Counted from the first letter of the stretch, positions 16,637 through 31,826 are shown. The stretch: DNA of 64,000 nucleotides from Nannocystis bainbridge (GCF_028368995.1 NZ_JAQNDL010000002.1:801724-865723); one strand, 5' to 3'. Numbers and translations: made by a program. The notes: a model not told the origin generated them from the letters alone.

Positions 16637-19600
16637 TCAGGTGGGCGCGCTGCCGTTGAACATGGCGCTCCACTGCGCGGGGCGGAGGATCGCCTGCGAC
16701 TCGAGGACCTGATCGGCCTGGGCGATCAGCGGCGCGCCGGTGGGGCCGAGCAGCTCCCCGCGGCGGCGGCGGGCGCAGGCGGCGTGCAGGCGCATGTCGG
16801 CGGTGTCGAAGCTGGCGGCGGCGGCCTCGAGGCGGACCAGCGCCTGCGGGATGTCGCCGTTCTGCGTGGCGATGCCGGCCCGGATCAGCGCGGCCATGGC
16901 GACCGAGTCGTGGCGCAGCGCGCGGTCCTCCTCGAGCTGGGCGGCGTCGCGTTCGGCGGCGGCGAGCAACACGCCGGCGTTGTGCGGCTGCTCGCGGGCG
17001 GCGGCGACGGCGGCGAGGCCCCGCGCGTGGAGGAAGAGGATCCGCTGGCCCTGCCAGCCGAGGATGTACGAGTTCTCGACGGCGACCCAGTTCTCGGCGA
17101 GGCGCTGCCACGCGGACCCGCCCTGGCCCTGGTAGAGGTCGCACGAGGTCTCGAGCAGCAGCGCGAGCATGTGCTGGAAGTGGAAGCCGTCCTTCGACCA
17201 GCGACGCATCGCCCCGCGCACGCGATCGCGGGCGCTGGTGATGTCGTCGGCGGCGAGCAGGGCATAGGCGCTGTAGAGGGCCGACCAGACCTCGCCGCAA
17301 AGATCGCCGGCGTCCTCGGCCTCGCGCAGCCAGGCGTGGGCGCGGTGGCCGAGCTCGGACAGCTCGCCGAGCATGAACAGCCCGCCCATCGAGCTCATGC
17401 GGGCGAGGTCGAGCTCCCAGCCGACGCCGACGCAGCGGTCGAGCAGGACCTGGGCGCCCTGCTCGTTGTGCTCGAGCGCGCGGCGCCAGCGGCCGAGCGA
17501 GACGTCGGCGATGGCGTCGATGATCTCGCACAGGGCCACGAGGCGCGCGTCCGTGAGCTGGTCGGCGAGCTTGCGCGCCTCCTTGAGGAGGGTGGTGCCG
17601 CGGCCGACGGCGTTGGCGGTGCCGCGGCTCATCACCATGGCGCCGACGCCGGCGAGGGCGCGGGCGATCCGGTGGGGCTCACCTGTCTGAAGGGCCAGGA
17701 GCAGGCCGCGCTGGAAGAAGCTGTAGCCGCGGATCGGGTCGACGAAGGCGAGGCCGACGGCCGCCGACAGGCACACGTCGAGGCGCAGCAGGTCGGCCGG
17801 CGGGACCTGCTCCTCGCGCACGCCGACGAAGCCGAGGCCGCGCAAGCTGAGCTGCGTCGAGCGGGTGATGATCGACATGTTGGCGCGGCCGGGCGTGGCC
17901 GGGTAACCGAGGTCGACCTCGACGAGCGCGGGCCGCAGCATCCGCACGCCCTGATCGATGTTGCCGCTGACGAGGAACTGCTCGCCGGCGCGGCGGCGCA
18001 GCTCGAGCGACTCGGCCGCGGTGGCGCCCTCGGCGGCGCTGGCGTAGACGGGGGCGGCCTCGGCGCTGCGACCGGCGAGCGCGAGCGCGTCGGCGCGGCG
18101 GCGCAGCAAGGCCCGGCGCTCGTCGTCGGCCAGGTCATCGGCCCACGCGAGCGCGCGGCCGTACAGCTGGGCGGCGCGCTGGAACGCGAGCGTGGCGGCG
18201 GCTCGCTCGGCGGCGGCGACGGCGGCGGTGTGGGCCTCCTTCAGGGCGCCGGCGGCGTGGAGGTGGTGCGCCAACAGCTCGGGATCGTCGGCGGCCTGGG
18301 CGAGCGCGTCGGCGAGGGTGCGGTGCAGCTGCGCCAGTCGATCGCCGCCGAGCTGCGCGAGCACGGTGTCACGGATCCGGTCGTGGTAGCACTCGATGGT
18401 GTCGCCGCTGCGGCTGGCGAGGGTGCGCAGCAGGTGCTGCGCCTGCAGCTCGCCGAGGACCGCGCGATCGGTGACGCCCGAGGCGGTGAAGGCGAGGCTC
18501 GGCGGGATCGGCCGCCCGGCGACGGCGACGATCTCGAGCAAGCTGCGACCGGCCGCGCGCAAGCCGGCGAGGCGCGTGCGCACGACGGCGTCGAGCGAGA
18601 CCTCGGCCGGCGCGGAGCCGCGATGACCGGCGATGTGGCGCGCGAGCTCCTCGACGAACAGCGGGTTGCCGCCCGACTCGGCGGCGATCCGGCGCGCCTC
18701 GGCGCGGGCGCTGTCGCTGTCGCGACCGAGCCGGGACAGCGCGAGCTCCTCGGCCTGATCGGGCGACAGCGGCTCGACCAGGAGGTCGCGCACCAGCGCC
18801 TTGAGCTCGGGCCGCGCGCCGAGCCGCCGCAGCTCGCGGAGCATCGGCGCGTCGTCCTCGTCGATGCGGTAGGAGCCGATGAACAGCATCGCCGGCGGAT
18901 CGGGGGGCGACAGCAGCTCGACGAGCAGGCGCGCGCTGTCCTCGTCGCCCCACTGCAGGTCGGCGATGCGCAGCACCAGCGGGCGGCGATCGGCGATCCG
19001 TGCCAGCAGCTCCTTGAGCCCGCGGAAGGCGCGACGACGAGCCTCCTGCGGGTCGGGGGCGACGAAGTTGCGCTGCGGCAGGTCGGCGACCACGGCCGCG
19101 CGCGCGAGCACGGGGAACAGCCGCGTGAGCTCGTGGATCTCGCGCGGCAACAGGGCCGCGGCCTCCTCGGGCGGGAGGTGGCGGAGGTGCTGCGCGAGCG
19201 CGTCGAGCACGCTGTCGAACGCCTTGTAGGGCACGCTCTCGCGCTCGTAGCAGCGGCCCTGCAGGACAAAGGCGCGGTCGGTGCGGCGCAGCTCGGCGAT
19301 GAAGCGATCGATGACGGCGGTCTTGCCGATGCCCGAGCGGCCGCGGACGTACACGCACACCGGCGAGCCGGCGACCGCGAGCTGGAAGGCGTCGCGCATG
19401 GCCGACAGCAGGTCGTCGCGGCCGACGAAGCGGGCGCCGGAGTCGGTCGGGCCGAGCGGGGCCTCGCCGAGCGCCTCGCGGATGTCGGCGCCGCCGAGCC
19501 GCGCGGCCGGGTCGCGCTGCAGGAGGCCCATGCACAGCGCGGCCAGCTCGAGGTCGACGTCGGGCGCGAGCTGCTGCGGCGGGGTCGGGTCCTCGTGCTG

Positions 19601-20323
19601 CTTGGCGTGCAGGATCTTCAGCGGCGGGCCGCTGAAGGGCAGGCGGCCGGTGAGCGCCTCGTAGAGCATGACGCCGATGGCGTACCAGTCGCTCGCGGAC
19701 GAAGCCGGGTTGCCGGCGGCTTGCTCGGGGGCCATCGTCGCCGGGGTGCCGAGCAGGCCGTCCTCGCCGCCCTCGCCGACGTCGTCGGCGGCGAGGCCGA
19801 AGTCGAGGATGGCGACGCGACCGTCGCCGCTGACCAGCACGTTCGACGACTTGAGGTCGCGGTGCAGCTTGCCGGCGGCGTGCAGGGCGCTGACGCCGGC
19901 GGCGAGCTGCAGCAGGGCCGGGCGCATGCGCTCGGGCGGCGGCGCTGCATCTGGCCTTTCGGACATGCCCTCACGGACATAGTCGACGAAGCTGACGCCG
20001 TCGACGAACTCCATGGTGATGAACCACTCGTCGTCGTGCGAGATCAGCTGATGGAGGCTGACGAGGTTCGGGTGCGACAGGCCGGCGGCGCTGCGGAACT
20101 CGTTCTTGAGGCGGAACAGCGCGCCGGGGTCGAGCTGGTGCAGGGTCTTGACCGCGACGGTGCGGCCGCTGTCGCGCTCGATCGCGGCGTAGACGATACC
20201 CATGCTGCCGGAGCCGACCCGTCGCACCAGCTCGTAGCGGCCGAGCGTACGCGGCAGGATGTCCTCAGGGACAGGTGGCGTCACCGGCAGCGAGGCGCGG
20301 GCCTGGGGCTCGTCGGACTTCAA
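16637..20323 (-). CDS. Ser/Thr protein kinase fused to an AAA/NB-ARC-like ATPase and a C-terminal TPR-like helical domain (STAND-type signalling protein)
   Basis: Kinase subdomains LGRYELVRRVGSGSMGIVYAA...AVK, HRDLKSSNVLV, DFGLA and GTPATMAPE. Walker A GRSGIGKT and Walker B LVLRIADLQWGDE. A long C-terminal helical-repeat region follows. No in-frame ATG lies near the kinase domain, so the start is probably TTG at about 20323. A repeat-family unit pair (19960-19984) encodes an insertion, GMSERPDAAPPPERM, inside the kinase domain. Confidence 0.85.
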   Translation of the reverse strand: MKSDEPQARASLPVTPPVPEDILPRTLGRYELVRRVGSGSMGIVYAAIERDSGRTVAVKTLHQLDPGALFRLKNEFRSAAGLSHPNLVSLHQLISHDDEWFITMEFVDGVSFVDYVREGMSERPDAAPPPERMRPALLQLAAGVSALHAAGKLHRDLKSSNVLVSGDGRVAILDFGLAADDVGEGGEDGLLGTPATMAPEQAAGNPASSASDWYAIGVMLYEALTGRLPFSGPPLKILHAKQHEDPTPPQQLAPDVDLELAALCMGLLQRDPAARLGGADIREALGEAPLGPTDSGARFVGRDDLLSAMRDAFQLAVAGSPVCVYVRGRSGIGKTAVIDRFIAELRRTDRAFVLQGRCYERESVPYKAFDSVLDALAQHLRHLPPEEAAALLPREIHELTRLFPVLARAAVVADLPQRNFVAPDPQEARRRAFRGLKELLARIADRRPLVLRIADLQWGDEDSARLLVELLSPPDPPAMLFIGSYRIDEDDAPMLRELRRLGARPELKALVRDLLVEPLSPDQAEELALSRLGRDSDSARAEARRIAAESGGNPLFVEELARHIAGHRGSAPAEVSLDAVVRTRLAGLRAAGRSLLEIVAVAGRPIPPSLAFTASGVTDRAVLGELQAQHLLRTLASRSGDTIECYHDRIRDTVLAQLGGDRLAQLHRTLADALAQAADDPELLAHHLHAAGALKEAHTAAVAAAERAAATLAFQRAAQLYGRALAWADDLADDERRALLRRRADALALAGRSAEAAPVYASAAEGATAAESLELRRRAGEQFLVSGNIDQGVRMLRPALVEVDLGYPATPGRANMSIITRSTQLSLRGLGFVGVREEQVPPADLLRLDVCLSAAVGLAFVDPIRGYSFFQRGLLLALQTGEPHRIARALAGVGAMVMSRGTANAVGRGTTLLKEARKLADQLTDARLVALCEIIDAIADVSLGRWRRALEHNEQGAQVLLDRCVGVGWELDLARMSSMGGLFMLGELSELGHRAHAWLREAEDAGDLCGEVWSALYSAYALLAADDITSARDRVRGAMRRWSKDGFHFQHMLALLLETSCDLYQGQGGSAWQRLAENWVAVENSYILGWQGQRILFLHARGLAAVAAAREQPHNAGVLLAAAERDAAQLEEDRALRHDSVAMAALIRAGIATQNGDIPQALVRLEAAAASFDTADMRLHAACARRRRGELLGPTGAPLIAQADQVLESQAILRPAQWSAMFNGSAPT

Positions 20324-20337
20324 GGGCAGAGTATGGA

Positions 20338-21492
20338 TTATGCCACGCGGGCGGGCCCGAGGTCGCCGTCCGTAGGCAAGGCCCCGGGCGGGACGCCGAG
20401 GCCGGGGCCGCAAAGCCGCGGTAGTTCGGGCGCGAGCCGCACCTGGCTCCCCGGCGGCATCGGATCGTCCCGCGTGAGCATGTGGGCGTCGAGGTCGGCC
20501 TCGTCGGCGAGGCGGGCCAGGGCGGCGCCAGCCGCGAGCCCGACGCGGGTCTCGATCATGCAGCCGACGAGCACCCGCAGGCCGGCCTCCCGGGCCGCGG
20601 CGATCGTCGCCAGCGCCGGCGAGATCCCGCCGCACTTCATCAACTTGACGTTGATCCCGGCGACCCGGCCGCGCAGGGCCGCCACGTCGCCCGGCCCCTG
20701 CACGTCCTCGTCGGCGTAGATCGGCAGGGGGATGTCGCGCGCGAGCGCCGCGAGGAGGTCAGGCCGACCCGCAGGCAGCGGCTGCTCGAGCTGCTCGACC
20801 CCGAGATCGACGAGCAGCGGGAGCAGGGCGCGCACGTCGTCCGCGGTCCAGCCGCCGTTGGCGTCGATCCGCAGGCGCGCCCGCGGGGCGGCGGCGGCGA
20901 CCGCTCGCAGCGCCGCACGGTCGAAATCGCGGCCCTTGCCGAGCTTGATCTTGAGCACCGGCAGGTGCGCGGCCGCGGCCGCGCGGGCGGCCATCGCGTC
21001 GAGCTCGTCGAGCGCGATCGTGTAAGAGGTGACGGTCGCGCCCGATGTGGCCGAAAGGACATGTCGTTCGAGACCTGCCCGATCGAGCACGTCGGGATCG
21101 GCCAGGAGGTCGGGCAGGGGGCGGTCCGCGGCGCGGGCGGCCGCGTCCCACAGGGCGGTGTCGACGGCGCAGCGGGCGGCGGAGTGGTCGGGGGCGAGCT
21201 CGCGCATGCGCGCGCCGGCGGCCGCGATCGCGCGCGGGTCGAGGAGGATCGCCGGCGCCAGCTCGGCCGCGATCGCGGCCGCCAGCGGCGCAGCGGCGGC
21301 CGCCGACTGACCGAGGTAGCGCACGGGCGAGGCCTCGCCGAGGCCGCGGCGATCGGGGCCTTCGGGCAAGCGGCATCCGGGACCCTCCGGGTCGAGGCGC
21401 ACGAGCAAGCTCGGTAGTTCGCTCACGGTGCCGCGCGACAGGCCGAACGGATGGCGCAGGCGGAGCGTGACGAGGGCGGCGCGCAGGTCCAT
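20338..21492 (-). CDS. Enolase-superfamily enzyme (mandelate racemase/muconate lactonizing family; dipeptide epimerase or o-succinylbenzoate synthase-like)
   Basis: KIKLGKG (catalytic Lys strand), RIDANGGW, EQP, YADEDV and KLMKCGG metal and base motifs appear in the expected order. Confidence 0.8.
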   Translation of the reverse strand: MDLRAALVTLRLRHPFGLSRGTVSELPSLLVRLDPEGPGCRLPEGPDRRGLGEASPVRYLGQSAAAAAPLAAAIAAELAPAILLDPRAIAAAGARMRELAPDHSAARCAVDTALWDAAARAADRPLPDLLADPDVLDRAGLERHVLSATSGATVTSYTIALDELDAMAARAAAAAHLPVLKIKLGKGRDFDRAALRAVAAAAPRARLRIDANGGWTADDVRALLPLLVDLGVEQLEQPLPAGRPDLLAALARDIPLPIYADEDVQGPGDVAALRGRVAGINVKLMKCGGISPALATIAAAREAGLRVLVGCMIETRVGLAAGAALARLADEADLDAHMLTRDDPMPPGSQVRLAPELPRLCGPGLGVPPGALPTDGDLGPARVA

Positions 21493-21542
21493 GCGGCTCC
21501 ACGGTGTACCACCGCCGACGCGGCATTGTATGGTGGCCCCGC

Positions 21543-23042
21543 ATGTCCGTTCGCCGCCCCGGAGGCTCGTCCAGCGCCGCGCTCGAGCGGCTGTTCGACC
21601 GCGACTCGCCGCTCTCCTATGAGGAGCGGCTCGAGGCCCTGATCAAGGCGGCGCTGCCGGACCGGATCCAGCGGCTGTCGTTCGGCGCCGAGCTGGCGCG
21701 CGGAGGCATGGGCGCGGTGCGGCTGGCGTTCGACGAGGTGCTGCAGCGGCGGATGGCCGCCAAGACCATGCACGCCAAGACCTACGAGCACCTGATCCTG
21801 GTGCACGGGTTCTTGCGCGAGGCCCAGGTGACCGGCCAGCTCGACCACCCCAACATCGTGCCGATCCACGAGCTCGGGCGCGACGAGCAGGGTCAGCTGT
21901 ACTTCACGATGAAGCTGGTCGAGGGCCAGAGCCTCAAGGCGCTGATCGGCGGCGAGGCGGCGACCGACCACGAGCGGCTGTTCCACCGCCTCGAGATCTT
22001 CGTCAAGGTGTGCGACGCGCTGTCGTTCGCGCACAGCCGCGGGGTGATCCACTGCGACATCAAGTCGGCCAACGTGATGGTCGGCGCCTACGGCCAGGTC
22101 TACCTGATGGACTGGGGCGGGGCGCAGCTGCTGCCGCTTCGGTCCGGTGACGACGAGGCCCAGTGGGTCCGCGACGCCCTGCCGCCGCTGCCGCCGTCGG
22201 AGACCGACGGGCTGGTGTTCGGCACGCCTTCGTACATGTCGCCCGAGCAGGCCAACAGCCAGCCGCTCGACGAGCGCGCCGACGTGTTCTCGATGGGGGC
22301 GCTGCTCTACGAGATGATGGCGGGCCGGCCGCCGTACACCGCGCGCACCGCCATGGACGCGCTGATCATGGCCCGCGAGGCCAAGTTCGCCCCGCCCGAC
22401 ACACACGTGTCGGTGCCGTTCCCGCGCGAGCTGGTGCGCATCGTGACCCGGGCGCTGCGCCGCGATCCCGACGACCGCTACCCGAGCGTGGCGGCGCTGC
22501 AGGCCGACATCGTCCGGCTGCTGCGCGGCAGCGGCAGCTTCCAGACGGTCCGCTTCGCCGCCGGCGAGCACGTGATCCGCGAGGGCGAGATCGGCGACGC
22601 GGCCTACATCGTCCTGGCCGGCAGGCTCGAGGTCTACAAGATCGAGGCCGGGCACCACGTGTCGCTGCGCTGGCTCGGGCCCGGCGACGTGTTCGGCGAG
22701 ACCTCGATCTTCGCGGCGTCACGCCGGACCGCCAGCGTGCTGGTGGTCGAGGAGGCGACGCTGACGAAGATCACCAGCGACCTGATCGAGGAGGAGCTGA
22801 CCTCGATGAAGCCGTGGATGGGCGCTTTCGTGCGCACCCTGGCGGCCCGCTTCGCCGGCGTCGAGGGCCGCACGCCGCGGGCCGAGGGCGCGCCGCGCTC
22901 GGCCCCGCCGCGCCCGGCCGTGACGGTCAGCGCGCCGACGACCTCGGGCGGCGAGAGCGTGATCATCGACATCGACGAGCCGCTCGACGACGCGCTCGAC
23001 GGCAGCGACATGCACGCGACCGTGGTGGCCCGCCGCCGCTGA
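21543..23042 (+). CDS. Ser/Thr protein kinase with a C-terminal cyclic-nucleotide-binding (cNMP) domain
   Basis: Kinase motifs GGMGAVRLAF...AAK, HCDIKSANVMV, DWGGA and GTPSYMSPE. C-terminal cNMP-binding hallmarks are GDVFGETSIF and RRTASV (FGE...RTA). The start may instead be GTG at 21504. Confidence 0.85.
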   Translation: MSVRRPGGSSSAALERLFDRDSPLSYEERLEALIKAALPDRIQRLSFGAELARGGMGAVRLAFDEVLQRRMAAKTMHAKTYEHLILVHGFLREAQVTGQLDHPNIVPIHELGRDEQGQLYFTMKLVEGQSLKALIGGEAATDHERLFHRLEIFVKVCDALSFAHSRGVIHCDIKSANVMVGAYGQVYLMDWGGAQLLPLRSGDDEAQWVRDALPPLPPSETDGLVFGTPSYMSPEQANSQPLDERADVFSMGALLYEMMAGRPPYTARTAMDALIMAREAKFAPPDTHVSVPFPRELVRIVTRALRRDPDDRYPSVAALQADIVRLLRGSGSFQTVRFAAGEHVIREGEIGDAAYIVLAGRLEVYKIEAGHHVSLRWLGPGDVFGETSIFAASRRTASVLVVEEATLTKITSDLIEEELTSMKPWMGAFVRTLAARFAGVEGRTPRAEGAPRSAPPRPAVTVSAPTTSGGESVIIDIDEPLDDALDGSDMHATVVARRR

Positions 23043-23209: not shown

Positions 23210-24436
23210 TCACGCGCGCGCGGGCAGGGCGTCGAGCAGCTCGGTCAGCGCGCGCGGCAGGGCAGTGAAGCGGACCACCGCGCGGCCGGGGCTGGCGGCG
23301 ACGACCTTGGCGTAGGCGTCGACGCCGGGCAGGGCCGCGAGCACCAGCTTGAGGTCGGCGCGCAGCGGCAGCGGGGCGGACACCTGCAGCTCGGCGTTGT
23401 GGCGCTCGTCGTGGGCGACCAGCAGGGCCGGGACCTCCTGACCGCCGGTGTCCTTGCCCTCGAGCGCGGTGAACACCAGCGGCTGCGGCTGGGCCAGGAT
23501 CCGCCACTCGGCTGTCTCTTCGGCCATGTGGATGGCGAACGGGCCGTCGACGCCGGTGACGTCGTGGATCGTGATCGGCTCGCGCACGCCCTTGGGCCGG
23601 ACCTCGAAGCAGCCGCGGGTGCGCAGGCGATCGCCGAGGGCCCGCGCGGCGGACTCCGAGATCAGCACCTGACCGCCGACGGTGTAGCTCTCGATGCGCG
23701 ACGTCAGGTTGACGTGGCGGCCGACCACGCCGTACTTGGCGCGGCGGTTGGAGCCGATGTTGCCGACCACGACCTCGCCGGTGTGGACGCCGATGCCCAT
23801 CTCGAGCGCGGGCAGGCCGTGCGCGGCCAGGGCGGCGTTGACCTCGCCCATGGCCCGCTGCATGGCGATCGCGCAGGCGACCGCGCGCTCGGGGTGGTCG
23901 TCCTGCGGCACCGGGGCGCCGAACACCGCGAGGATGGCGTCGCCGATGAACTCGTTGATCGAGCCGCGGTACTCGCCGATCACGTCGGCCATGGCGCCGA
24001 GGTAGATGTTGAGGATCGCCACCACCTGCTCGGGGCCGAGGCCCTCGCACAGGGTCGAGAAGCCGCGCAGGTCGGAGATCAGGATCGTCAGCGTGCGCCG
24101 CTCGCCGCCGAGCTGGCGGCCCTCGGGCGAGGCGAGCAGCGTGTTGACGACCTCGTCGGTGACGTGGCGGCCGAACATCTGGCGGATGAAGGTGTTGCGC
24201 AGCTCGAGCTCGACCACCAGGGCCTCGACCTGCTCGATCTTGACGGCCAGCTGCTCCTCGATCTCGTTGGCGTGCTCGAGCGTCGAGTCGTGCAGCAGCA
24301 CCAGGTCGTCGTGCTCGGCCTGCAGCGCGGCCGCGGCGGCCACGAACGCGGCGCGGGCGGCCGGGTCGGCCAGGAGCTCGGCCGCGGCCTCGGGGTCGGC
24401 GAGGGCTCGCCGCCAGCGCGCATCGTCCGTGAGCAT
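23210..24436 (-). CDS. Class III nucleotidyl (adenylate/guanylate) cyclase with an N-terminal ~190 aa regulatory/helical domain
   Basis: Class III cyclase catalytic motifs: LTILISDLRGFSTL (metal-binding Asp), EFIGDAILAVFGAP, GIGVHTGEVVVGNIGS and GRHVNLTSRIES (NxxxR). It is the last gene of the SiaABC-like operon. Confidence 0.88.
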   Translation of the reverse strand: MLTDDARWRRALADPEAAAELLADPAARAAFVAAAAALQAEHDDLVLLHDSTLEHANEIEEQLAVKIEQVEALVVELELRNTFIRQMFGRHVTDEVVNTLLASPEGRQLGGERRTLTILISDLRGFSTLCEGLGPEQVVAILNIYLGAMADVIGEYRGSINEFIGDAILAVFGAPVPQDDHPERAVACAIAMQRAMGEVNAALAAHGLPALEMGIGVHTGEVVVGNIGSNRRAKYGVVGRHVNLTSRIESYTVGGQVLISESAARALGDRLRTRGCFEVRPKGVREPITIHDVTGVDGPFAIHMAEETAEWRILAQPQPLVFTALEGKDTGGQEVPALLVAHDERHNAELQVSAPLPLRADLKLVLAALPGVDAYAKVVAASPGRAVVRFTALPRALTELLDALPARA

Positions 24437-24449
24437 GCGGGCGGCCGGC

Positions 24450-24824
24450 TCAGTCGAGCGCGATCACGATCGCGGGCAGGAACTTCTTGAGGTTGGGCAG
24501 CGACTTGCCCTGCCACGGGATGGTCGACGAGCCGTGGACCTTGATCTCCGTCTCGCCCTTCTTGCGCGCGGCGATGGCGAACTTGTAGAGCATGTTGATG
24601 CCCGAGCTGTTGAGGAACTGCAGCTCGGTCATGCGCAGGGCGAGCGTCGGGCTGGCCTGGAGCACGCCGTCGAGCAGGTCCTCGATCGGCTTGTACTCGC
24701 TGGTGCTGAGGCGGAGCACGCCCTCGAAGTGGAGCGTGCGCGCGGGCAGGTCGAACCACACGCGGTAGCCGGGGCCTTTGATGTCGGTTTCCGACCCGGT
24801 GGGTCGCGTTGTCGTGTCCGTCAT
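24450..24824 (-). CDS. SiaC-like DUF1987-family partner-switch protein (putative phospho-acceptor)
   Basis: 124 aa, matching DUF1987 size. The central segment LALRMTELQFLNSSGINMLYKFAIAA resembles the SiaC core. The 4-nt overlap with the upstream kinase-like gene and a position between a HATPase protein and a cyclase match siaABCD synteny. Confidence 0.55.
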   Translation of the reverse strand: MTDTTTRPTGSETDIKGPGYRVWFDLPARTLHFEGVLRLSTSEYKPIEDLLDGVLQASPTLALRMTELQFLNSSGINMLYKFAIAARKKGETEIKVHGSSTIPWQGKSLPNLKKFLPAIVIALD

Positions 24825-25384
24825 GCCGATTTCACCTGTAGGCGGGCGGTGGTCTTGAGGAGCGCGTTGTCAGGATTGCCAGGCGCGGGGTCGAAGCGCC
24901 AGCCGAGCCGGGCCTTGTAGTCCGAGAGCATGGTGAGAAATCCCAGGCCCGAGGTCGTGAGCTCGGGGTTGGCGGCGTTCTCTTCGACGCGCTGCATCAG
25001 CAGGTCGGCGGGATCGCCGTCGAGCAGCTCGGCGAACTTGACCCGCAGGCCGTCGACCGTGGTGGTGGCGATCTGGTTGCTGACGACGACCACGAACTCG
25101 CCGGTCTCGACGCCGGCCTCGATGACGACGGTGCCGCCGGCGCAGAACTTGACCGCGTTCTCGATCAGCTCGTTGAGCACGTAGCCGACGCTGCCGATGA
25201 AGTCGCGCCGCTCGGCCTCCTCGGTCAGCTCGCTCTCGCTGACCTCGACGAAGTACTCGGCGAAGAAGTCGGCCGCGACGCTGCACTGGTTCCATCTGAC
25301 CGGGAACGCCCCCGGGTAGAACACGAGCGTGACGCGCGGTCCTGCGTCCGTGGGCTCCCTGTACTCGCCGATGATGCCGTCCAT
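24821..25384 (-). CDS. SiaB-like GHKL/HATPase_c_2 anti-sigma-factor-type Ser/Thr kinase
   Basis: N-box-like ELIENAVKF, G-box-like TSGLGFL and about 187 aa. It sits between PP2C-phosphatase and DUF1987 genes. Confidence 0.65.
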   Translation of the reverse strand: MDGIIGEYREPTDAGPRVTLVFYPGAFPVRWNQCSVAADFFAEYFVEVSESELTEEAERRDFIGSVGYVLNELIENAVKFCAGGTVVIEAGVETGEFVVVVSNQIATTTVDGLRVKFAELLDGDPADLLMQRVEENAANPELTTSGLGFLTMLSDYKARLGWRFDPAPGNPDNALLKTTARLQVKSA

Positions 25385-25407: not shown

Positions 25408-27768
25408 TCAGCGCCGCTTGATCACCACCGTCGTGATGTCGTCGAAGACCTTCTGCGCGCCGATGAAGCGCATGACGTCGTCGACGATCGCCTGCTTGAT
25501 GTCCGTCGCCGGCCGCTCGTGGGCCCGGCGCACGACCTCGCACAGGCGGTCGATGCCGTACTGCTCGCCGTGGATGTCCTCCGCCTCGGTTATGCCGTCA
25601 GTGTACAGGACGACGACATCGCCCGGCGACAGGCGCACCTCGGTGCGGGCGATGAAGGCGGCGATGTCGACCTCGATGCCCACGGGCATGCCCAGGTCGA
25701 TCGTGTCGATGCGCTCGATCGAGCCGTCCTGGCGGACCACCACCGCCTCTTCGTGCTGCCCGGTGAGGCGGAGCACCCCCTGCGCGTAGTCGAGGAGGAC
25801 GAGCGTGGCGGTGCGGTCGAGGCCGACCCGCTGGATGTTCTGGTAGAGGACCTTGTTGACGATGTTGAGGAAGCGCGCCGCGTCGCGCTCCTCGGCGGCC
25901 TGCAGCGTGCGCACGGCCGTCTGGATCATCAGCATCAGCACGCCGCTCTCGAGCCCGTGGCCCGTGACGTCGCCGATGCCGATCTTGACGCCGTCGCCGG
26001 CGCGCAGGACGTCGTAGTAATCGCCGCCCACCTCGTCCGCGGGGCGCATGTAGCCGGCGACGTCGAGGCCCTCGATCTCGGCCAGCTCGCGCTCGGGCGG
26101 CAGGACCATGAGCTGCAGCCGGCGGGCGACGTCGAGCTCGGCGCCGAGCCGCAGGTTCTCCTGCGCGAGCCGCTCGTTGAGCGCCATGATCTCGCGGGAG
26201 GCCCGCTGCAGCTGGGCGGTGCGCTGCTCGACCAGGCGCTCGAGGTCGTGCGTATTCGCGCGGATCTCGGCGGCCATCTGGTTGAAGGCGCGGCCGAGGG
26301 CGCCGAACTCGTCGTCGCTGCGCACGTCGACGCGGACCTCGTAGTCCTTTTGCGCGATCTTGCCGGCGCCGGCGGCGAGGTCGACCAGCGCGCCGGTCAT
26401 GCGCCGCGAGACCAGGAAGATCCCCAACATCACCACCGCGAGGGCGAAGAGGGTGATGGCGATCTGGTTGAAGAGGATCCCGCGGCTGCTGGCGGCGATG
26501 GTGTCTCGCGCCTTGTGCAGCGAGGCGTAGATCTCGGCGGCGGGGACGACGAAGCCGAGAGTCCAGCGCTCGGGCACGATGTCGGCCGAGCCCGACCAGG
26601 CGTTGAACGGGGCCAGCCGCTTGAGCACGACCACGTAGTCCTGGCCGCCGATCGCGACCGGGTCGCGGTAGTCGACGGCGTCGCCGCTGGGCAGCGCGAG
26701 GGCCCGGATCGCCGGGTCGCGCGACTGGTGCAGGAACCGCTGGAAGATGTCGACGCCGCCGCCCGAGGCGCCGCGGACCTCCTGCAGGCCGAGGATGTTT
26801 TGGCCGTCGTCGCGCACGGCGAACACGTTGCCGTTGTCCTGGGCGAGGAAGGCGAAGCCCGAGCCGGCGAGCCGCAGATCCTGGACGTAGCGGATCAGCT
26901 GGCCGAGCGTGACGTCGACGCCGACGGCCCCGGCGAAGCGCGTGCGCGTGGCGTCCCACACCGGCTGGAACAGGGTCATGATCGCACCGCTGCCGCCGGC
27001 GTCGGTGTACGGCGCGGTGCCGGTCAGCTGCGTCGCGGGCTCGCGCATGCGCGCGGGATCGGCGAGCCAGCGCTTCCAGCCGTCGACGATGCCGGGGAAG
27101 TAGAAGCCCCAGAACGGGCTGTTGTTGTGGCCGGGGTAGAGCTGGTCGGCGTGGCCGGCGGCGTCGGCGTAGGGGGCGATCCGCAGGTACTCGGCGCCCT
27201 CGGGGCCGATGAAGTACATGGCCTGCTTCTCGGCCCCGTGCTGCAGCTGCGCGGGCAACAGCAGGTCGAGCAGGGCGGTCTGCGCGACGGCGGCGCGGAC
27301 CTCAGGCTTGATGTCCCGAAGGCCAGGTTGATTCGGAGCAGCAGGCGCGTGCAGGTAGCCCCACACGGCCACGGCCGTCGGCTCGCCCGCGGGGGTCTGC
27401 GACCACTCGCCGCGCGCATCGTAGACGAGGGCGTCGCGCAGCGGGCCGGCCGCGGCGGCCGCGGCGGTCAGCGGCGCGAGCGCGGCCTGTTGATCGATGA
27501 GCGTCTGGGTCACCGCCGCGAGCACGCCGAGCTCGGCGCCGGCGCGGCCGCGGAGAAATTCGACGCGCTGCGCGGTGTCCTCGAGGTGGTTGGTGAGGTA
27601 CTCGCGACTGGCGCGCTCGAGGCCCTTGCGGATCTCCTCCGAGGCGTCGCTGCCGAGCGAGCTGATGCCGCGCAGCGAGGCCAGCGCGGCGAGCGTCAGC
27701 CCGATGACCAGCCCGACCCCAGCGACGAGGACGAACTTGGTGCGGAACCTGGAGCCCGTGGTGGCCAT
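25408..27768 (-). CDS. SiaA-like membrane sensor phosphatase: periplasmic sensor domain, TM, HAMP and a PP2C/SpoIIE phosphatase domain
   Basis: N-terminal TM (FVLVAGVGLVIGLTLAAL), about 390 aa extracytoplasmic region, second TM (ITLFALAVVMLGIFLV), HAMP-like linker (FGALGRAFNQMAAEI). PP2C motifs are GGDYYDV, GDVTGHG and YTDGITEA. Confidence 0.8.
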   Translation of the reverse strand: MATTGSRFRTKFVLVAGVGLVIGLTLAALASLRGISSLGSDASEEIRKGLERASREYLTNHLEDTAQRVEFLRGRAGAELGVLAAVTQTLIDQQAALAPLTAAAAAAGPLRDALVYDARGEWSQTPAGEPTAVAVWGYLHAPAAPNQPGLRDIKPEVRAAVAQTALLDLLLPAQLQHGAEKQAMYFIGPEGAEYLRIAPYADAAGHADQLYPGHNNSPFWGFYFPGIVDGWKRWLADPARMREPATQLTGTAPYTDAGGSGAIMTLFQPVWDATRTRFAGAVGVDVTLGQLIRYVQDLRLAGSGFAFLAQDNGNVFAVRDDGQNILGLQEVRGASGGGVDIFQRFLHQSRDPAIRALALPSGDAVDYRDPVAIGGQDYVVVLKRLAPFNAWSGSADIVPERWTLGFVVPAAEIYASLHKARDTIAASSRGILFNQIAITLFALAVVMLGIFLVSRRMTGALVDLAAGAGKIAQKDYEVRVDVRSDDEFGALGRAFNQMAAEIRANTHDLERLVEQRTAQLQRASREIMALNERLAQENLRLGAELDVARRLQLMVLPPERELAEIEGLDVAGYMRPADEVGGDYYDVLRAGDGVKIGIGDVTGHGLESGVLMLMIQTAVRTLQAAEERDAARFLNIVNKVLYQNIQRVGLDRTATLVLLDYAQGVLRLTGQHEEAVVVRQDGSIERIDTIDLGMPVGIEVDIAAFIARTEVRLSPGDVVVLYTDGITEAEDIHGEQYGIDRLCEVVRRAHERPATDIKQAIVDDVMRFIGAQKVFDDITTVVIKRR

Positions 27769-27798: not shown

Positions 27799-28971
27799 TC
27801 AGCGTCCGGGTTTGCGGCCGGAGGCGACGTAGATCGGCCAGGTGGCGAAGCCGCGGCGGCTGCGGATCGCGTACACGTGATCGCGGAAGCCCATGCGCAG
27901 GCGCTCGACGACCTCGGGCGGCTGCTGCGTGGCGGTCGACAGCTCGCCGGTGACGTACTCCTCCCAGCTCTCGATCACCCGCGCGAAGTCGTCGATCGCG
28001 GTGTTGTTGTTGGTGATCGGGATCTGCTCCATGCGCACGTCCTCGAAGCCCATGTCGGTGAGCAGCGAGAACATCTTCGGCCCGAAGTTCATGTCCATGC
28101 CGAGGCTCTGGGCGATCTTCACGGCCTGCTGGTAGGTCCACGTGACCGACTCGTGGCGCGGGTAGCCGTAGTTGTGCGCCGACATCTCGTTGGTCAGGTA
28201 GACGCGACCGCCGGGCTTACAGATCCGCAGCAGCTCGCGCAGGATGCTCGACGGATCGTTGAAGATCTGCAGGGCCAGGCGCGAGGTGACGAAGTCGAAG
28301 CTGTTCGACGGCAAGAACAGGTGGGTCGCGTCGCCGAACTGGTACTCGATGTCGGTGATGCCGAAGTCGCGGGCGATCTGCTGCGCGTACTGCAAGAACG
28401 GGCGCGAGTGGTCGACGCCGACGATGTAGGTGGGCTCGAACTCCTTGTAGACGAGCACCGCGAAGTCGCCGATCCCGCAGCAGATGTCGGCGATCCGCAT
28501 GTGCTTGCCGAGGCCGTGCTGGCGCAGCAGCTCGCGCTCGTGCGACCACACGATGTTGGTCTGGGTCCGCAGCACCGGCACCAGCTGATCGTTCTCGATC
28601 ACGCCCTGGCCGGGATAAAACGCCTTGTCGTACTGCTCGACGATGGTGTTGCCGAAGCGCGCGCCGAGGAAGCCGAACCGCAGCGGCGCCCACGGGACCA
28701 CGCTCGAGATGACGAGCTTGAGCTTGAGCGCGGGGTGACGCTCGGCGCAGGCGGCGATGAAGCGCGCGAGCTCGAGGAAGCCGGCGTGGTTGAGGTAACG
28801 CAGGCGCTTGAAGTTGAGGTAGAGGACGCCTCGCACGGCGTCGGCGGCGTGGTCGAGGCGGGCCCGCACCGGCGCGAAGTCCTCGGCGCCGGCGGGGCGC
28901 AGAGAGCCCTCGAGCGCGACCTCCTGGTCGTTCTCGCTGAAGCGGATCGTGAACGGTCGCTCGTGCTCCAT
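27799..28971 (-). CDS. Fusion of a DUF1987/SiaC-like N-terminal domain with a class I SAM-dependent methyltransferase
   Basis: N-terminal ~100 aa (VLYLNFKRLRYLNHAGFLELARFIAAC) parallels the SiaC-like protein. Methyltransferase motif I is ADICCGIGDFAVL and the post-I/II region is CKPGGRVYLTNE. Confidence 0.65.
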   Translation of the reverse strand: MEHERPFTIRFSENDQEVALEGSLRPAGAEDFAPVRARLDHAADAVRGVLYLNFKRLRYLNHAGFLELARFIAACAERHPALKLKLVISSVVPWAPLRFGFLGARFGNTIVEQYDKAFYPGQGVIENDQLVPVLRTQTNIVWSHERELLRQHGLGKHMRIADICCGIGDFAVLVYKEFEPTYIVGVDHSRPFLQYAQQIARDFGITDIEYQFGDATHLFLPSNSFDFVTSRLALQIFNDPSSILRELLRICKPGGRVYLTNEMSAHNYGYPRHESVTWTYQQAVKIAQSLGMDMNFGPKMFSLLTDMGFEDVRMEQIPITNNNTAIDDFARVIESWEEYVTGELSTATQQPPEVVERLRMGFRDHVYAIRSRRGFATWPIYVASGRKPGR

Positions 28972-28983
28972 GGCCGGCTCGGC

Positions 28984-29490
28984 TCACTCGTGCGGGACGG
29001 TCAGGACGATGACGCCGGTGCCTTCACCCTCGCGCAGCGCGAGCCCGACGCCGTGCAGCGCGACCAGCTCGAGCAGCCCGACCTCGGCCGGCGGGCGCAG
29101 GATCATCGACTCGAACTCGGCCTCGTAGCGGGCGCGCGCGTCGGTCGGCTCGGCCAGCCCGAGGTCGACCCGCAGCCGCCGGGCCAGCGCCTCGTCGGTC
29201 GGCATCGTCAGCTCAGCGATCACGTGCTCGTCGGTGCGCCCGACCTCGACCACGATCTCGCCCTCGCTCGGGCGGGCGCGGAACACGTACTCGAGCACCT
29301 CGTTGAGATAGGTCGAGAGGCGCGTGGTCAGCTGCTCGGGGTCGAAGCGATCGGAGGCGACGAAGCGCGCGATGTAATCGGCCAGCCGCTGGCAATGCGT
29401 CCAGCTGTCATATAGCCCGCGGACGCTGATCCGCAGGGTGAGGATCGGGCTCGGGCCGGACGGTGAGGGGGGCGCGGGATCGGAGGTCAT
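28984..29490 (-). CDS. Second SiaB-like HATPase-type kinase paralog (about 168 aa)
   Basis: YLNEVLEYVFRARPSEGEIVVEVGRTDEHVIAELT parallels ELIENAVKFCAGGTVVIEAGVETGEFVVVVSN of the other kinase-like protein. It lies immediately upstream of the DUF1987-methyltransferase fusion. The start is taken at MTSDPAPP, upstream of which the ORF is composition-biased. Confidence 0.5.
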   Translation of the reverse strand: MTSDPAPPSPSGPSPILTLRISVRGLYDSWTHCQRLADYIARFVASDRFDPEQLTTRLSTYLNEVLEYVFRARPSEGEIVVEVGRTDEHVIAELTMPTDEALARRLRVDLGLAEPTDARARYEAEFESMILRPPAEVGLLELVALHGVGLALREGEGTGVIVLTVPHE

Positions 29491-29732: not shown

Positions 29733-31826
29733 ATGACTACGACCAGGACGCTCGCCATCAAGGTGTTTTACGGCGATCAGCTCGTCGACACGCAGACGCT
29801 GACGCAAGACGTTATCAAAATTGGAAAACTGAAGAGTAGCCACCTCTGTCTCGATGACGAGGCTGTGGCCCGCATGCACGCCGTGATCGAGGTGTCCGGC
29901 GAAGAGGTGCGGGTGATCGATCTCGGGAGCGCGGCGGGCACCGTGCTCAACGGCCAGCGGATCGACAAGAACGCGGTGCTGCACGATGGCGACGCCTTGA
30001 ACTTCGGGCCCTACCGGCTCGAGGTCGGCTTCGTCCGGCAGCAGGCCGCGGTCGCGCCGGCCCCGTCGCAGGTGGCCGCGCCCGTGGCTGTGGCGGTCGC
30101 CGCGGCGCCGATGGCCGCGCCGATGGCGACGCGGGCGCCGATCCAGATCGACCTCAGCGAGGTCGAGAATCAGGGCGGCTCGCGCGTGGCCGAGGTCGTG
30201 GCGATGTACGGCACGACGGTGCTCGACGTGCAGCACGTCGGTCAGCTGCGCAACCGCAAGTCGCAGGCGCCGATCTTCCTCGCCATCGGCGGGGCGATGC
30301 TGGTCGCTGGCGCGGCGGTGTTCTTCAGCGACGTGAACGCGGACTGGCCCGGCTACGGCAAGAAGGTCCAGGATTCGATCGAGCAGGGCACGCCGCGCCC
30401 GACCCCGCCCGGAAACGGTCTGGCGGCGATCGGCATGCTGCTGGCGATCGCGGGCCTCGTGCCGTTCAGCATGGGCCTCATCCGCACCGGCGACTACGTC
30501 AACAAGAACTTCACGATCGGCGAGGGTCACGGCGCGTCGTTCCACGTGCCGCCGGCCGGCCTGCCCGAGCCCAACGGCTTCCCGCTGGTCCGCGGCAGCG
30601 ACCACGAGTTCGCGCTCAACTTCACCCAGAACATGAGCGGTGAGGTCACCTTCGACGGCCAGACGATCACGCTGCAGCAGCTGGTCGCCACCGGTCGCGC
30701 GGGCGCGCAGGGCTCGTCGTTCAGCTTCCCGCTGCCGCCCGGAGCGACGGCGCGGGTCAAGTACCAGGACGTCACCTTTTACGTGAACTCGGTCGCGCCG
30801 GGCGCGGTGATCAAGGGCGGCAGCGAGACCGACAAGCCGTTCTGGATCTACAACGGCGCCTCGTTCGTGGTCATCGGCAGCCTGCTGGTGCTCACGCACC
30901 TGATCCCCAACGAGGCCGGCAACCTCAGCCTCGACGAGATGATGGAAGAGAACCGCTTCGTCGGTTACCTCAACCAGCCCGACAAGCCGCCGGAGGAGGA
31001 GGAGCCGCCGCCGGAGGACATGGAGAACTCCGACGACGAGGCCGGCGGCACCGGTCAGCGTCACAAGGGCGAGGAGGGCAAGATGGGCAAGCCCACCTCG
31101 AAGAGCAAGTCGGGCCTCTACGCCATGAAGGGCCCCAAGGACGCCATCCCGCAGATGGCCCGTAACTTCGACCCCGACATGGCCGCGCGCCAGGCCGGCA
31201 TCCTCGGGGTCATGAGCGCCGAGAGCGGCCACTTCCTCGCCTCGCCGTACGGCGGCGCGTTCGCGGTCGGCAACGACGACGCGGACGTGTGGGGCGGCCT
31301 CACCGGCACCGAGGTCGGCGAAGCGTACGGCGTCGGCGGCCTCGGCCTGGTCGGCACCGGCCGCGGCGGCGGCGGCACCGGCGAGGGCACGATCGGCCTC
31401 GGCAACACGGGCCTCATCGGCAAGGGCGGCGGCGGCGGCACGGGCTCCGGCTACGGTCGTGGCGCAGGCGCCGGCTTCGGCGGCCGCGGCACCCGCGTGC
31501 CGACGGTCCGTCAGGCCAAGGCCGAGGTCCAGGGCGCGCTCGACAAGGACATCATTCGCCGCATCGTCCGCGCGCACATCAACGAGGTCCGCTACTGCTA
31601 CAACCAGGCCCTCGCGCGTGACCCCAACGCCAAGGGCCGCGTCGCCGTCCAGTTCACCATCGGCGGCACCGGCAAGGTGCCCACGGCGGTGGTCCAGGAG
31701 AGCACGTTGAAGGACCCGGCCGTCGGCTCCTGCATCGCCCAGGCGGTCAAGCGCTGGACCTTCCCCAAGCCCGAAGGCGGCGGTTCGGTCATCGTCTCGT
31801 ACCCGTTCGTGCTCGAGCCGGGTTGA
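29733..31826 (+). CDS. FHA-domain protein with a Gly-rich low-complexity region and a C-terminal AgmX/PglI-type (TonB-C-like) domain
   Basis: N-terminal FHA (IKIGKLKSSHLCLDDEAVARMHAVIEVSGEEVRVIDLGSAAGTVLNGQRI). One predicted TM. GGGGTG repeats. C-terminal VRYCYNQALARDPNAKGRVAVQFTIGGTGKV...SVIVSYPFVL is typical of the myxobacterial AgmX/PglI C-terminal domain. Confidence 0.8.
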   Translation: MTTTRTLAIKVFYGDQLVDTQTLTQDVIKIGKLKSSHLCLDDEAVARMHAVIEVSGEEVRVIDLGSAAGTVLNGQRIDKNAVLHDGDALNFGPYRLEVGFVRQQAAVAPAPSQVAAPVAVAVAAAPMAAPMATRAPIQIDLSEVENQGGSRVAEVVAMYGTTVLDVQHVGQLRNRKSQAPIFLAIGGAMLVAGAAVFFSDVNADWPGYGKKVQDSIEQGTPRPTPPGNGLAAIGMLLAIAGLVPFSMGLIRTGDYVNKNFTIGEGHGASFHVPPAGLPEPNGFPLVRGSDHEFALNFTQNMSGEVTFDGQTITLQQLVATGRAGAQGSSFSFPLPPGATARVKYQDVTFYVNSVAPGAVIKGGSETDKPFWIYNGASFVVIGSLLVLTHLIPNEAGNLSLDEMMEENRFVGYLNQPDKPPEEEEPPPEDMENSDDEAGGTGQRHKGEEGKMGKPTSKSKSGLYAMKGPKDAIPQMARNFDPDMAARQAGILGVMSAESGHFLASPYGGAFAVGNDDADVWGGLTGTEVGEAYGVGGLGLVGTGRGGGGTGEGTIGLGNTGLIGKGGGGGTGSGYGRGAGAGFGGRGTRVPTVRQAKAEVQGALDKDIIRRIVRAHINEVRYCYNQALARDPNAKGRVAVQFTIGGTGKVPTAVVQESTLKDPAVGSCIAQAVKRWTFPKPEGGGSVIVSYPFVLEPG

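Follow-up and report, generated by a model that had tools for sequence, protein, structure and literature searches.

To our knowledge, signalling through cyclic GMP (cGMP) has been documented in a handful of bacterial organisms only. One of the enzymes characterised in bacteria is Cya2 of Synechocystis, the one bacterial guanylate cyclase known to have a solved structure and a biochemically established GTP-specific cyclase with a Glu-Gly pair of base-specifying residues (PMC6005667), which makes cGMP when expressed in Escherichia coli (PMC10127613) and which the substitution Glu488Lys alone converts to an adenylate cyclase (PMC5995499). A bacterial subgroup of Glu/Gly cyclases was suggested already in 2008, according to the passage of PMC6005667 that summarises that work. 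In Xanthomonas campestris, linkage is known between a gene for a guanylate cyclase and one for an effector with a cyclic nucleotide-binding (CNB) domain, in the pair XC_0250/XC_0249 (PMC3770947). The locus described here lies in a stretch of 64,000 nucleotides from Nannocystis bainbridge (GCF_028368995.1 NZ_JAQNDL010000002.1:801724-865723), the whole of which is referred to as the window, and it centres on the gene of a class III nucleotidyl cyclase, whose best-supported identity, as judged from its sequence and a structural model, is that of a Cya2-type guanylate cyclase. The gene and the parts of its product that matter for this assignment are the following:

23210..24436, minus strand: class III nucleotidyl cyclase gene, product of 408 residues, Cya2-type, predicted guanylate cyclase (open reading frame, PF00211, alignment to PDB entries)
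24116..24436, minus strand: N-terminal helical region, residues 1-107 (secondary structure of the model, conservation)
23513..24115, minus strand: catalytic core, residues 108-308 (57.5% identical to Cya2, ungapped)
23951..23953, minus strand: Glu162, codon GAG, equivalent to Glu488 of Cya2, where adenylate cyclases have the adenine-specifying Lys
23729..23731, minus strand: Gly236, codon GGC, equivalent to Gly562 of Cya2, where adenylate cyclases have Asp or Thr; N243 lies seven residues on
23699..23701, minus strand: Ser246, codon TCG, equivalent to Tyr572 of Cya2
23213..23512, minus strand: C-terminal beta-rich domain, residues 309-408 (model, conservation)

The PDB was searched with phmmer, and the list of Cya2 residues was taken from PMC6005667. 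The top two matches are 6FHT, an artificial phytochrome-cyclase, and Cya2 of Synechocystis (2W01), to whose chain residues 7-206 the residues 108-307 of the product align with zero gaps (E 1.6e-70, 115/200 identical, 57.5%). This phmmer alignment gives the following equivalences:

D122, equivalent to Cya2 D448
R124, equivalent to Cya2 R450
E162, equivalent to Cya2 E488
D166, equivalent to Cya2 D492
G236, equivalent to Cya2 G562
N243, equivalent to Cya2 N569
R247, equivalent to Cya2 R573
K282, equivalent to Cya2 K608

An initial annotation of the locus, aligned by eye, had placed a Glu just before the IGD motif, at the position of the adenine-specifying Lys, together with a Gly seven residues before the catalytic Asn, and had recognised in both the pair of Cya2. 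The quoted strings are found in the product (SINEFIGDA, which holds E162, and KYGVVGRHVNLTSR, which holds G236), and the placement holds exactly, both in the ungapped alignment over 200 residues and in the structural superposition described below. The likeness extends well beyond the two positions, the core as a whole being that of a Cya2 homologue. This search also aligned two adenylate cyclases, CyaB of Pseudomonas aeruginosa (3R5G) and CyaC of Spirulina (1WC0), which show Lys in the column of E162 and Thr in the column of G236, and a Lys in the first of these columns is also found in 6FHT, which derives its cyclase from an engineered E488K adenylate-cyclase variant of Cya2. Since this single change flips Cya2 to an adenylate cyclase, residue 162 is the decisive position.

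The comparison of an AlphaFold model with Cya2 and with adenylate cyclases, which had been proposed as a check, points the same way. The AlphaFold2 model of the cyclase, built from 41 relatives (mean predicted local distance difference test, pLDDT, 80), finds its best full-domain match by Foldseek in Cya2 2W01, with a template-modelling (TM) score of 0.93 on the target, a root-mean-square deviation (rmsd) of 1.9 Å and 58% identity, and adenylate cyclases rank behind at 30-35% identity. Agreement of this order is far greater than chance would give. A Glu/Gly pair that would be an artefact of the alignment, with Lys/Asp at the true specificity positions, was also considered, and is refuted by the ungapped alignment, by the superposition at 1.9 Å and by the Lys/Thr of CyaB and CyaC in the very same columns.

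Regarding the catalytic machinery, the metal-binding Asp pair of beta1 and the beta2-beta3 loop (D122 and D166) is invariant in the 41 relatives, and the transition-state residues N243 and R247 of the NxxxR motif, as well as the phosphate-binding R124 and K282, are all present. A protein that had become a catalytically dead, cyclase-like regulatory domain would have nothing specific in its favour, and with the full set of catalytic residues present and invariant across the relatives this explanation was rejected as highly improbable.

The signature is widely shared. Glu and Gly occur together in 111 of the 120 best database homologues, the rest having Asp/Gly, Glu/Ala or Glu/Ser. Among 80 genome loci, 48 encode Glu/Gly and 19 more combine Glu with Ala, Ser or Thr, and a Lys/Thr pair, canonical for class IIIb adenylate cyclases, appears in five of them, which are the most distant ones (35-39% identity) and come from Chlamydiae and one Okeania; the alignment therefore tells both signatures apart. 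The clade as a whole keeps Glu together with a small residue and comprises at least 2591 proteins at E <1e-10 with varied N-terminal regulators (REC, HisKA, HAMP, GAF). The rarity that the initial annotation had ascribed to bacterial cGMP signalling stands as far as documented organisms are concerned, and does not extend to the sequences, as Cya2-type Glu/Gly cyclases, with their thousands of homologues, are not rare. As a separate observation, the cyclase orthologue of a Polyangia metagenome-assembled genome (MAG; locus L010, 8001-14422) carries Asp for Glu at the specificity position.

Ser246 is the sole specificity-related residue at which the cyclase departs from Cya2, and several observations, most of them around this position, weigh against a GTP preference. 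The Glu/Gly reading was right about both residues and had left unnoticed a third determinant of Cya2, Tyr572, which lies directly before the catalytic Arg and is described, in PMC4215837 with reference to Rauch 2008, as leaving adenylate cyclase activity unaffected and greatly enhancing guanylate cyclase activity. Among the loci compared, Tyr at position 246 is found only in four cyanobacterial ones (L019, L029, L032, L041). In the adenylate cyclase Ma1120, the double change K101E/D157G resulted in more guanylate cyclase activity with ATP still preferred (kcat/Km 1.92 vs 0.29 x10^6), and a Tyr had to be added before ATP and GTP became equal substrates. In addition, the active-site loops of the monomer model (residues 163-167 and 230-233) are of low confidence, and no biochemical data were found for this cyclase or for any Glu/Gly/Ser member.

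The observations on the Tyr and on Ma1120 would favour an adenylate cyclase, or else an enzyme that takes both ATP and GTP with little selectivity, which despite its Glu/Gly pair would lack discrimination for want of the Tyr of Cya2, and the similar affinity with which Cya2 itself reportedly binds ATP and GTP (PMC4215837) fits with this idea. We consider it unlikely, given that the scaffold here is that of Cya2's own family and not of a foreign adenylate cyclase such as Ma1120, that Glu162 sits precisely where Cya2 needs a Lys to become an adenylate cyclase, and that the CNB domain encoded by the conserved neighbouring gene shows the guanine-recognition residues described below. Moreover, members of the Glu/small-residue clade normally have Ser, Ala or Gly at position 246, as all the non-cyanobacterial ones do, a distribution that suggests that the Tyr is a lineage-specific cyanobacterial refinement and not part of the core signature, and the Ser of this position looks ancestral in the clade. 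On balance, the residues of the active site indicate that the cyclase probably prefers GTP, a preference that is not treated here as settled, mainly because of the Ma1120 result and the change of Tyr572 to Ser246.

In a window with 71% guanine plus cytosine (G+C), the reading frame of the cyclase shows a third-position G+C (GC3) of 0.98 vs 0.46 at second positions, which is the pattern expected of a real gene in such a genome, and the overlapping open reading frames of the plus strand were rejected as spurious, as they failed this codon-position test. A protein of Nannocystis bainbridge that is annotated merely as 'adenylate/guanylate cyclase domain-containing protein' matches the product at 100% identity, and Pfam finds in the product a single domain, Guanylate_cyc (PF00211, residues 115-283, E 5e-26). 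Neither the C-terminal domain nor the N-terminal region gave any Pfam match with E up to 10.

Both flanks of the core are nevertheless recognisable in the model and by conservation. Residues 1-107 hold a conserved DP..AAELLADP segment and a long helix (25-87), which lead to the transducer element, a motif described in PMC5995499; here it reads FGRH (F88-H91, 24164-24175, minus strand), where Cya2 and over 90% of the aligned relatives show FGRY. The CHASE2 domain and transmembrane sensor of full-length Cya2 were looked for and are absent, the N-terminus being soluble, helical and devoid of Pfam domains. Residues 309-408 are modelled with high pLDDT as a beta-rich domain with a single terminal helix, in which K328, A348, Y375 and K377 are invariant, and the domain is kept as far out as the cyanobacterial homologues. 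It is probably the equivalent of the uncharacterised C-terminal extension of Cya2, which is required for activity (PMC5995499).

A second line of evidence for the nature of the messenger comes from the gene next to the cyclase:

21504..23042, plus strand: Hanks-type Ser/Thr kinase with a C-terminal domain for binding cyclic mononucleotides (cNMP), the CNB domain (Pfam)

The translation start of this kinase may lie at ATG 21543, and its catalytic residues are intact (K85, HCD183-185, DWG203-205). In the window the kinase gene is convergent with the cyclase gene, and a scan for promoters and terminators between the two found nothing. Out of 19 orthologous loci, 15 have the orthologue of the kinase gene next to the cyclase, either in convergent orientation, directly downstream or directly upstream, and the adjacency kept through such rearrangement argues for a functional coupling of both proteins. 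By sequence, the eight closest solved CNB domains all belong to cGMP-dependent protein kinases (PKGs). When compared with the cGMP-selective CNB-D domain of PfPKG, Leu388-Arg389 of beta5 fall on L472-R473, Glu399 on E483, and Arg408-Thr409 of the phosphate-binding loop on R492-T493. In PfPKG, the strand 5 residues L472 and R473 specifically recognise guanine, as in the CNB-B domain of human PKG I, and T493 connects the phosphate with guanine N2 (PMC4412288). Of 120 family members scanned, 105 had a site that could be located, and 100 of these show the signature of Leu-Arg plus Arg-Thr/Ser; the family has at least about 100 proteins in Nannocystaceae, which carry generic annotation only. Such a conserved signature lends independent support to the idea that the locus uses cGMP as its messenger, and on the basis of its binding-site residues the kinase is a candidate cGMP receptor.

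Two points tell against a dedicated cGMP reader. A Thr or Ser after the loop Arg is also found in receptors of cyclic AMP (cAMP), and the signature also occurs in paralogues of the kinase-CNB gene that are not located near any cyclase. When the association was tested in reverse, starting from the kinase, it did not hold: no cyclase adjoins the paralogue of N. punicea or the 50% homologue of Pseudenhygromyxa, so that the adjacency is specific to one orthologous subgroup. As an observation from other genomes, stand-alone cNMP-binding proteins are found beside Glu-type cyclases in an alphaproteobacterial MAG (L021, 9906-10196) and in a Rokubacteria MAG (L069, 10371-10670), both with Leu-Arg on beta5 and an Arg-Ser or Arg-Thr loop, which the neighbouring CNB domains of L023, L030, L034 and L037 do not have.

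On its other side, the cyclase gene is preceded by five genes with which it forms an apparent six-gene operon of the minus strand, from about 29490 to 23210, with spacings that go from a 4-nt overlap to 30-nt gaps. These upstream genes are, starting with the one closest to the cyclase:

24450..24824, minus strand: SiaC-like/STAS-like phosphoprotein of the slr1659 superfamily, 124 residues (NCBIfam NF047705, E 6e-36)
24821..25384, minus strand: SiaB-like, GHKL-type kinase-like protein of the slr1658 superfamily (NF047703, E 6e-44)
25408..27768, minus strand: SiaA-like membrane sensor phosphatase with a Cache-like periplasmic region, HAMP and PP2C (SpoIIE) domains (Pfam)
27799..28971, minus strand: slr1659/SiaC-like domain fused to a class I S-adenosylmethionine (SAM) methyltransferase (open reading frame call, Pfam, NCBIfam)
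28984..29490, minus strand: degenerate slr1658-like protein, first gene of the operon (NF047703, E 3e-6)

The gene of the SiaC-like protein ends 13 nt before the start of the cyclase. Its product is modelled with pLDDT 90, and among the relatives aligned its FLNSSGIN motif is almost invariant, with Ser73 where helix 2 begins. The residue phosphorylated in SiaC is Thr68 of LLYLNTSSIK, which likewise lies at the N-terminus of helix 2, so the L-N-S-S of the small protein (FLNSSG) compares with the L-N-T68-S-S of SiaC (YLNTSS), and by this analogy, and by its position in the model, Ser73 is the predicted phosphorylation site. In Foldseek, the top seven PDB matches of the model are all SiaC chains (6KKO, 7E6G, 6KKP; TM 0.63-0.68, 15-17% identity), with SpoIIAA and RsbV ranking below them. 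Sequence searches of the PDB with the SiaC-like and SiaB-like proteins found nothing significant, and when the SiaC-like family was searched as a profile of 34 sequences, the only matches were marginal ones to the anti-sigma antagonists RsfB and SpoIIAA (E 0.05-0.4), with none to SiaC, so that it is the fold search by itself that links the small protein to SiaC.

The family models give a similar picture for the other two components, with a weak match of the SiaB_fam_kinase model NF038262 to the kinase-like protein (E 2e-5, 24 bits for a cut-off of 85) and a partial match of the SiaA model NF038263 to the phosphatase (113 bits for an equivalog cut-off of 700). The term 'Sia-like' used in the initial annotation is therefore to be kept with a restriction: the SiaC fold and the HAMP-PP2C and GHKL-type neighbours agree with it, the small proteins fall outside the SiaB and SiaC sequence families, and the likeness is one of fold and logic, not of family membership. 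Regarding gene boundaries, GTG 25543 is the start called mechanically for the SiaB-like protein, which gives a reading frame that runs into the end of the phosphatase gene and whose Arg-rich first 53 residues are unconserved in distant orthologues; the true start is probably ATG 25384, which is preceded by GGAGAG. In the methyltransferase fusion, the site motif reads YLNHAGF, in which His-Ala replaces the expected phosphorylatable Ser-Ser and no Ser or Thr is present. The degenerate pair formed by this fusion and the slr1658-like protein is conserved together with the module in L001-L008 and L010.

The partner-switch module adjoins the cyclase in L001-L008, and in L010 it is rearranged, downstream on the same strand. 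In L009 and L011-L017, which make up about half of the orthologous loci, it does not adjoin the cyclase, despite the conserved N-terminal regions of the cyclases there, and this counts against a control of the cyclase by the switch. It would rather fit a situation in which cGMP is made and the switch acts on the fused methyltransferase or on an unlinked target, the cyclase being regulated otherwise, for instance through its C-terminal domain; the presence of the SiaC-like/methyltransferase fusion in the same operon and the need of Cya2 for its C-terminal extension (PMC5995499) agree with such a scheme. It is a possible explanation, although on the improbable side, given the 13 nt between the SiaC-like gene and the cyclase, the linkage that outlasts rearrangement in L010 at 53% identity, and the architecture of the cyclase, which like SiaD lacks a sensor domain and has at its N-terminus a helical stalk alone (PMC8457831).

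Taken as a whole, a Cya2-type guanylate cyclase that the partner switch sets and whose cGMP a PKG-like kinase reads is the best explanation of the locus, and a reasonably likely one. The pathway would start with the membrane HAMP-PP2C phosphatase, which would dephosphorylate Ser73 of the SiaC-like protein, and the slr1658-type kinase would re-phosphorylate it. The unphosphorylated SiaC-like protein would then bind the conserved N-terminal helical stalk of the cyclase and favour its active dimer, as SiaC does for SiaD; such a direct activation is plausible by analogy, and the operon structure together with the SiaABCD precedent indicates that the upstream switch probably sets cyclase activity. 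The soluble cyclase homodimer would most likely convert GTP to 3',5'-cGMP. Finally, the neighbouring Hanks kinase would read cGMP through its C-terminal CNB domain, as a bacterial counterpart of PKG, a role that is probable in view of the conserved adjacency and of the residues at the binding site. A broader proposal, that Nannocystaceae possess a full three-tier cGMP pathway running from an environmental signal through partner switch and cyclase to a PKG-type Hanks kinase, is rather doubtful.

Outside this cluster, a Pfam search of the open reading frames called in the window (with the exclusion of two stretches without called reading frames) found no phosphodiesterase, second cyclase or further CNB protein. 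Genes of phospho-Thr signalling are dense around the locus. A gene for a protein with an FHA domain (29733-31826, plus strand) is divergent from the operon, and a 1332-residue Ser/Thr kinase with an AAA_16 domain (16637-20635, minus strand) is encoded 600 bp beyond the neighbour of the kinase-CNB gene.

As regards precedents, neither a class III cyclase under partner-switch control nor a characterised bacterial Hanks kinase regulated by cGMP was found in the literature consulted, a limited collection that makes weak evidence of novelty, and protein-kinase effectors were not found among the known bacterial cGMP receptors in that same limited literature. If true, the proposed control would make this the first class III cyclase governed by a partner switch, and the kinase would be a bacterial analogue of PKG drawn from a sizeable kinase family of Nannocystaceae. 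If confirmed, Sia-type partner switches would extend from cyclic di-GMP (c-di-GMP) to cGMP, and a relay from cGMP to a kinase would operate in a social and developmentally complex group of bacteria. In any case, the parts of the locus lend themselves to direct tests, namely a soluble cyclase, a phospho-switch and a kinase with a PKG-like pocket, and natural Glu/Gly/Ser cyclases can show how much the Tyr of Cya2 matters for GTP selectivity.

Four described systems can be set beside this locus. With Cya2 (sll0646 of Synechocystis PCC 6803) the cyclase shares a core of 57.5% identity, the Glu/Gly pair, the catalytic residues, the transducer element and the C-terminal extension, whereas it lacks CHASE2 and transmembrane segments, has instead a soluble helical N-terminus of about 100 residues, and carries Ser for Tyr572; it is moreover myxobacterial, and its gene lies inside a partner-switch operon and beside a kinase-CNB gene. 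With SiaABCD of Pseudomonas aeruginosa the operon has in common the HAMP-PP2C phosphatase, a small GHKL-type kinase-like protein and the phosphoprotein of about 120 residues, all in one operon, together with the phosphorylation site L-N-S/T-S at the start of helix 2 and an output enzyme made of a helical stalk and a palm-fold cyclase domain. In contrast, the output here is a class III mononucleotide cyclase where SiaABCD has SiaD, a diguanylate cyclase of the GGDEF type, the small proteins are of the slr1658/slr1659 superfamilies with no significant sequence match to SiaB or SiaC, and the operon has an additional SiaC-like/methyltransferase pair.

On the effector side, XC_0250/XC_0249 of Xanthomonas campestris and the system of Rhodospirillum centenum resemble this locus in that a guanylate cyclase gene is tied to the gene of a cGMP-binding effector with a cNMP domain. 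However, their cyclases are atypical, having Ala as the specificity residue and other residues in place of the Asn/Arg pair, and the part of the effector is taken there by a CNB-GGDEF protein or a CRP-type regulator instead of a protein kinase. The eukaryotic PKGs, as represented by CNB-B of PKG I and CNB-D of PfPKG, also combine CNB and Ser/Thr kinase domains in one polypeptide, with the same Leu-Arg and Arg-Thr residues, whereas in the protein described here the kinase comes before the CNB domain, a single CNB domain is present, and the kinase is a non-RD one of the Hanks type (HCD, DWG). By these comparisons, the cyclase is an ordinary, though unannotated, member of the known Cya2-type subgroup, and the interest of the locus is in the arrangement that surrounds it.

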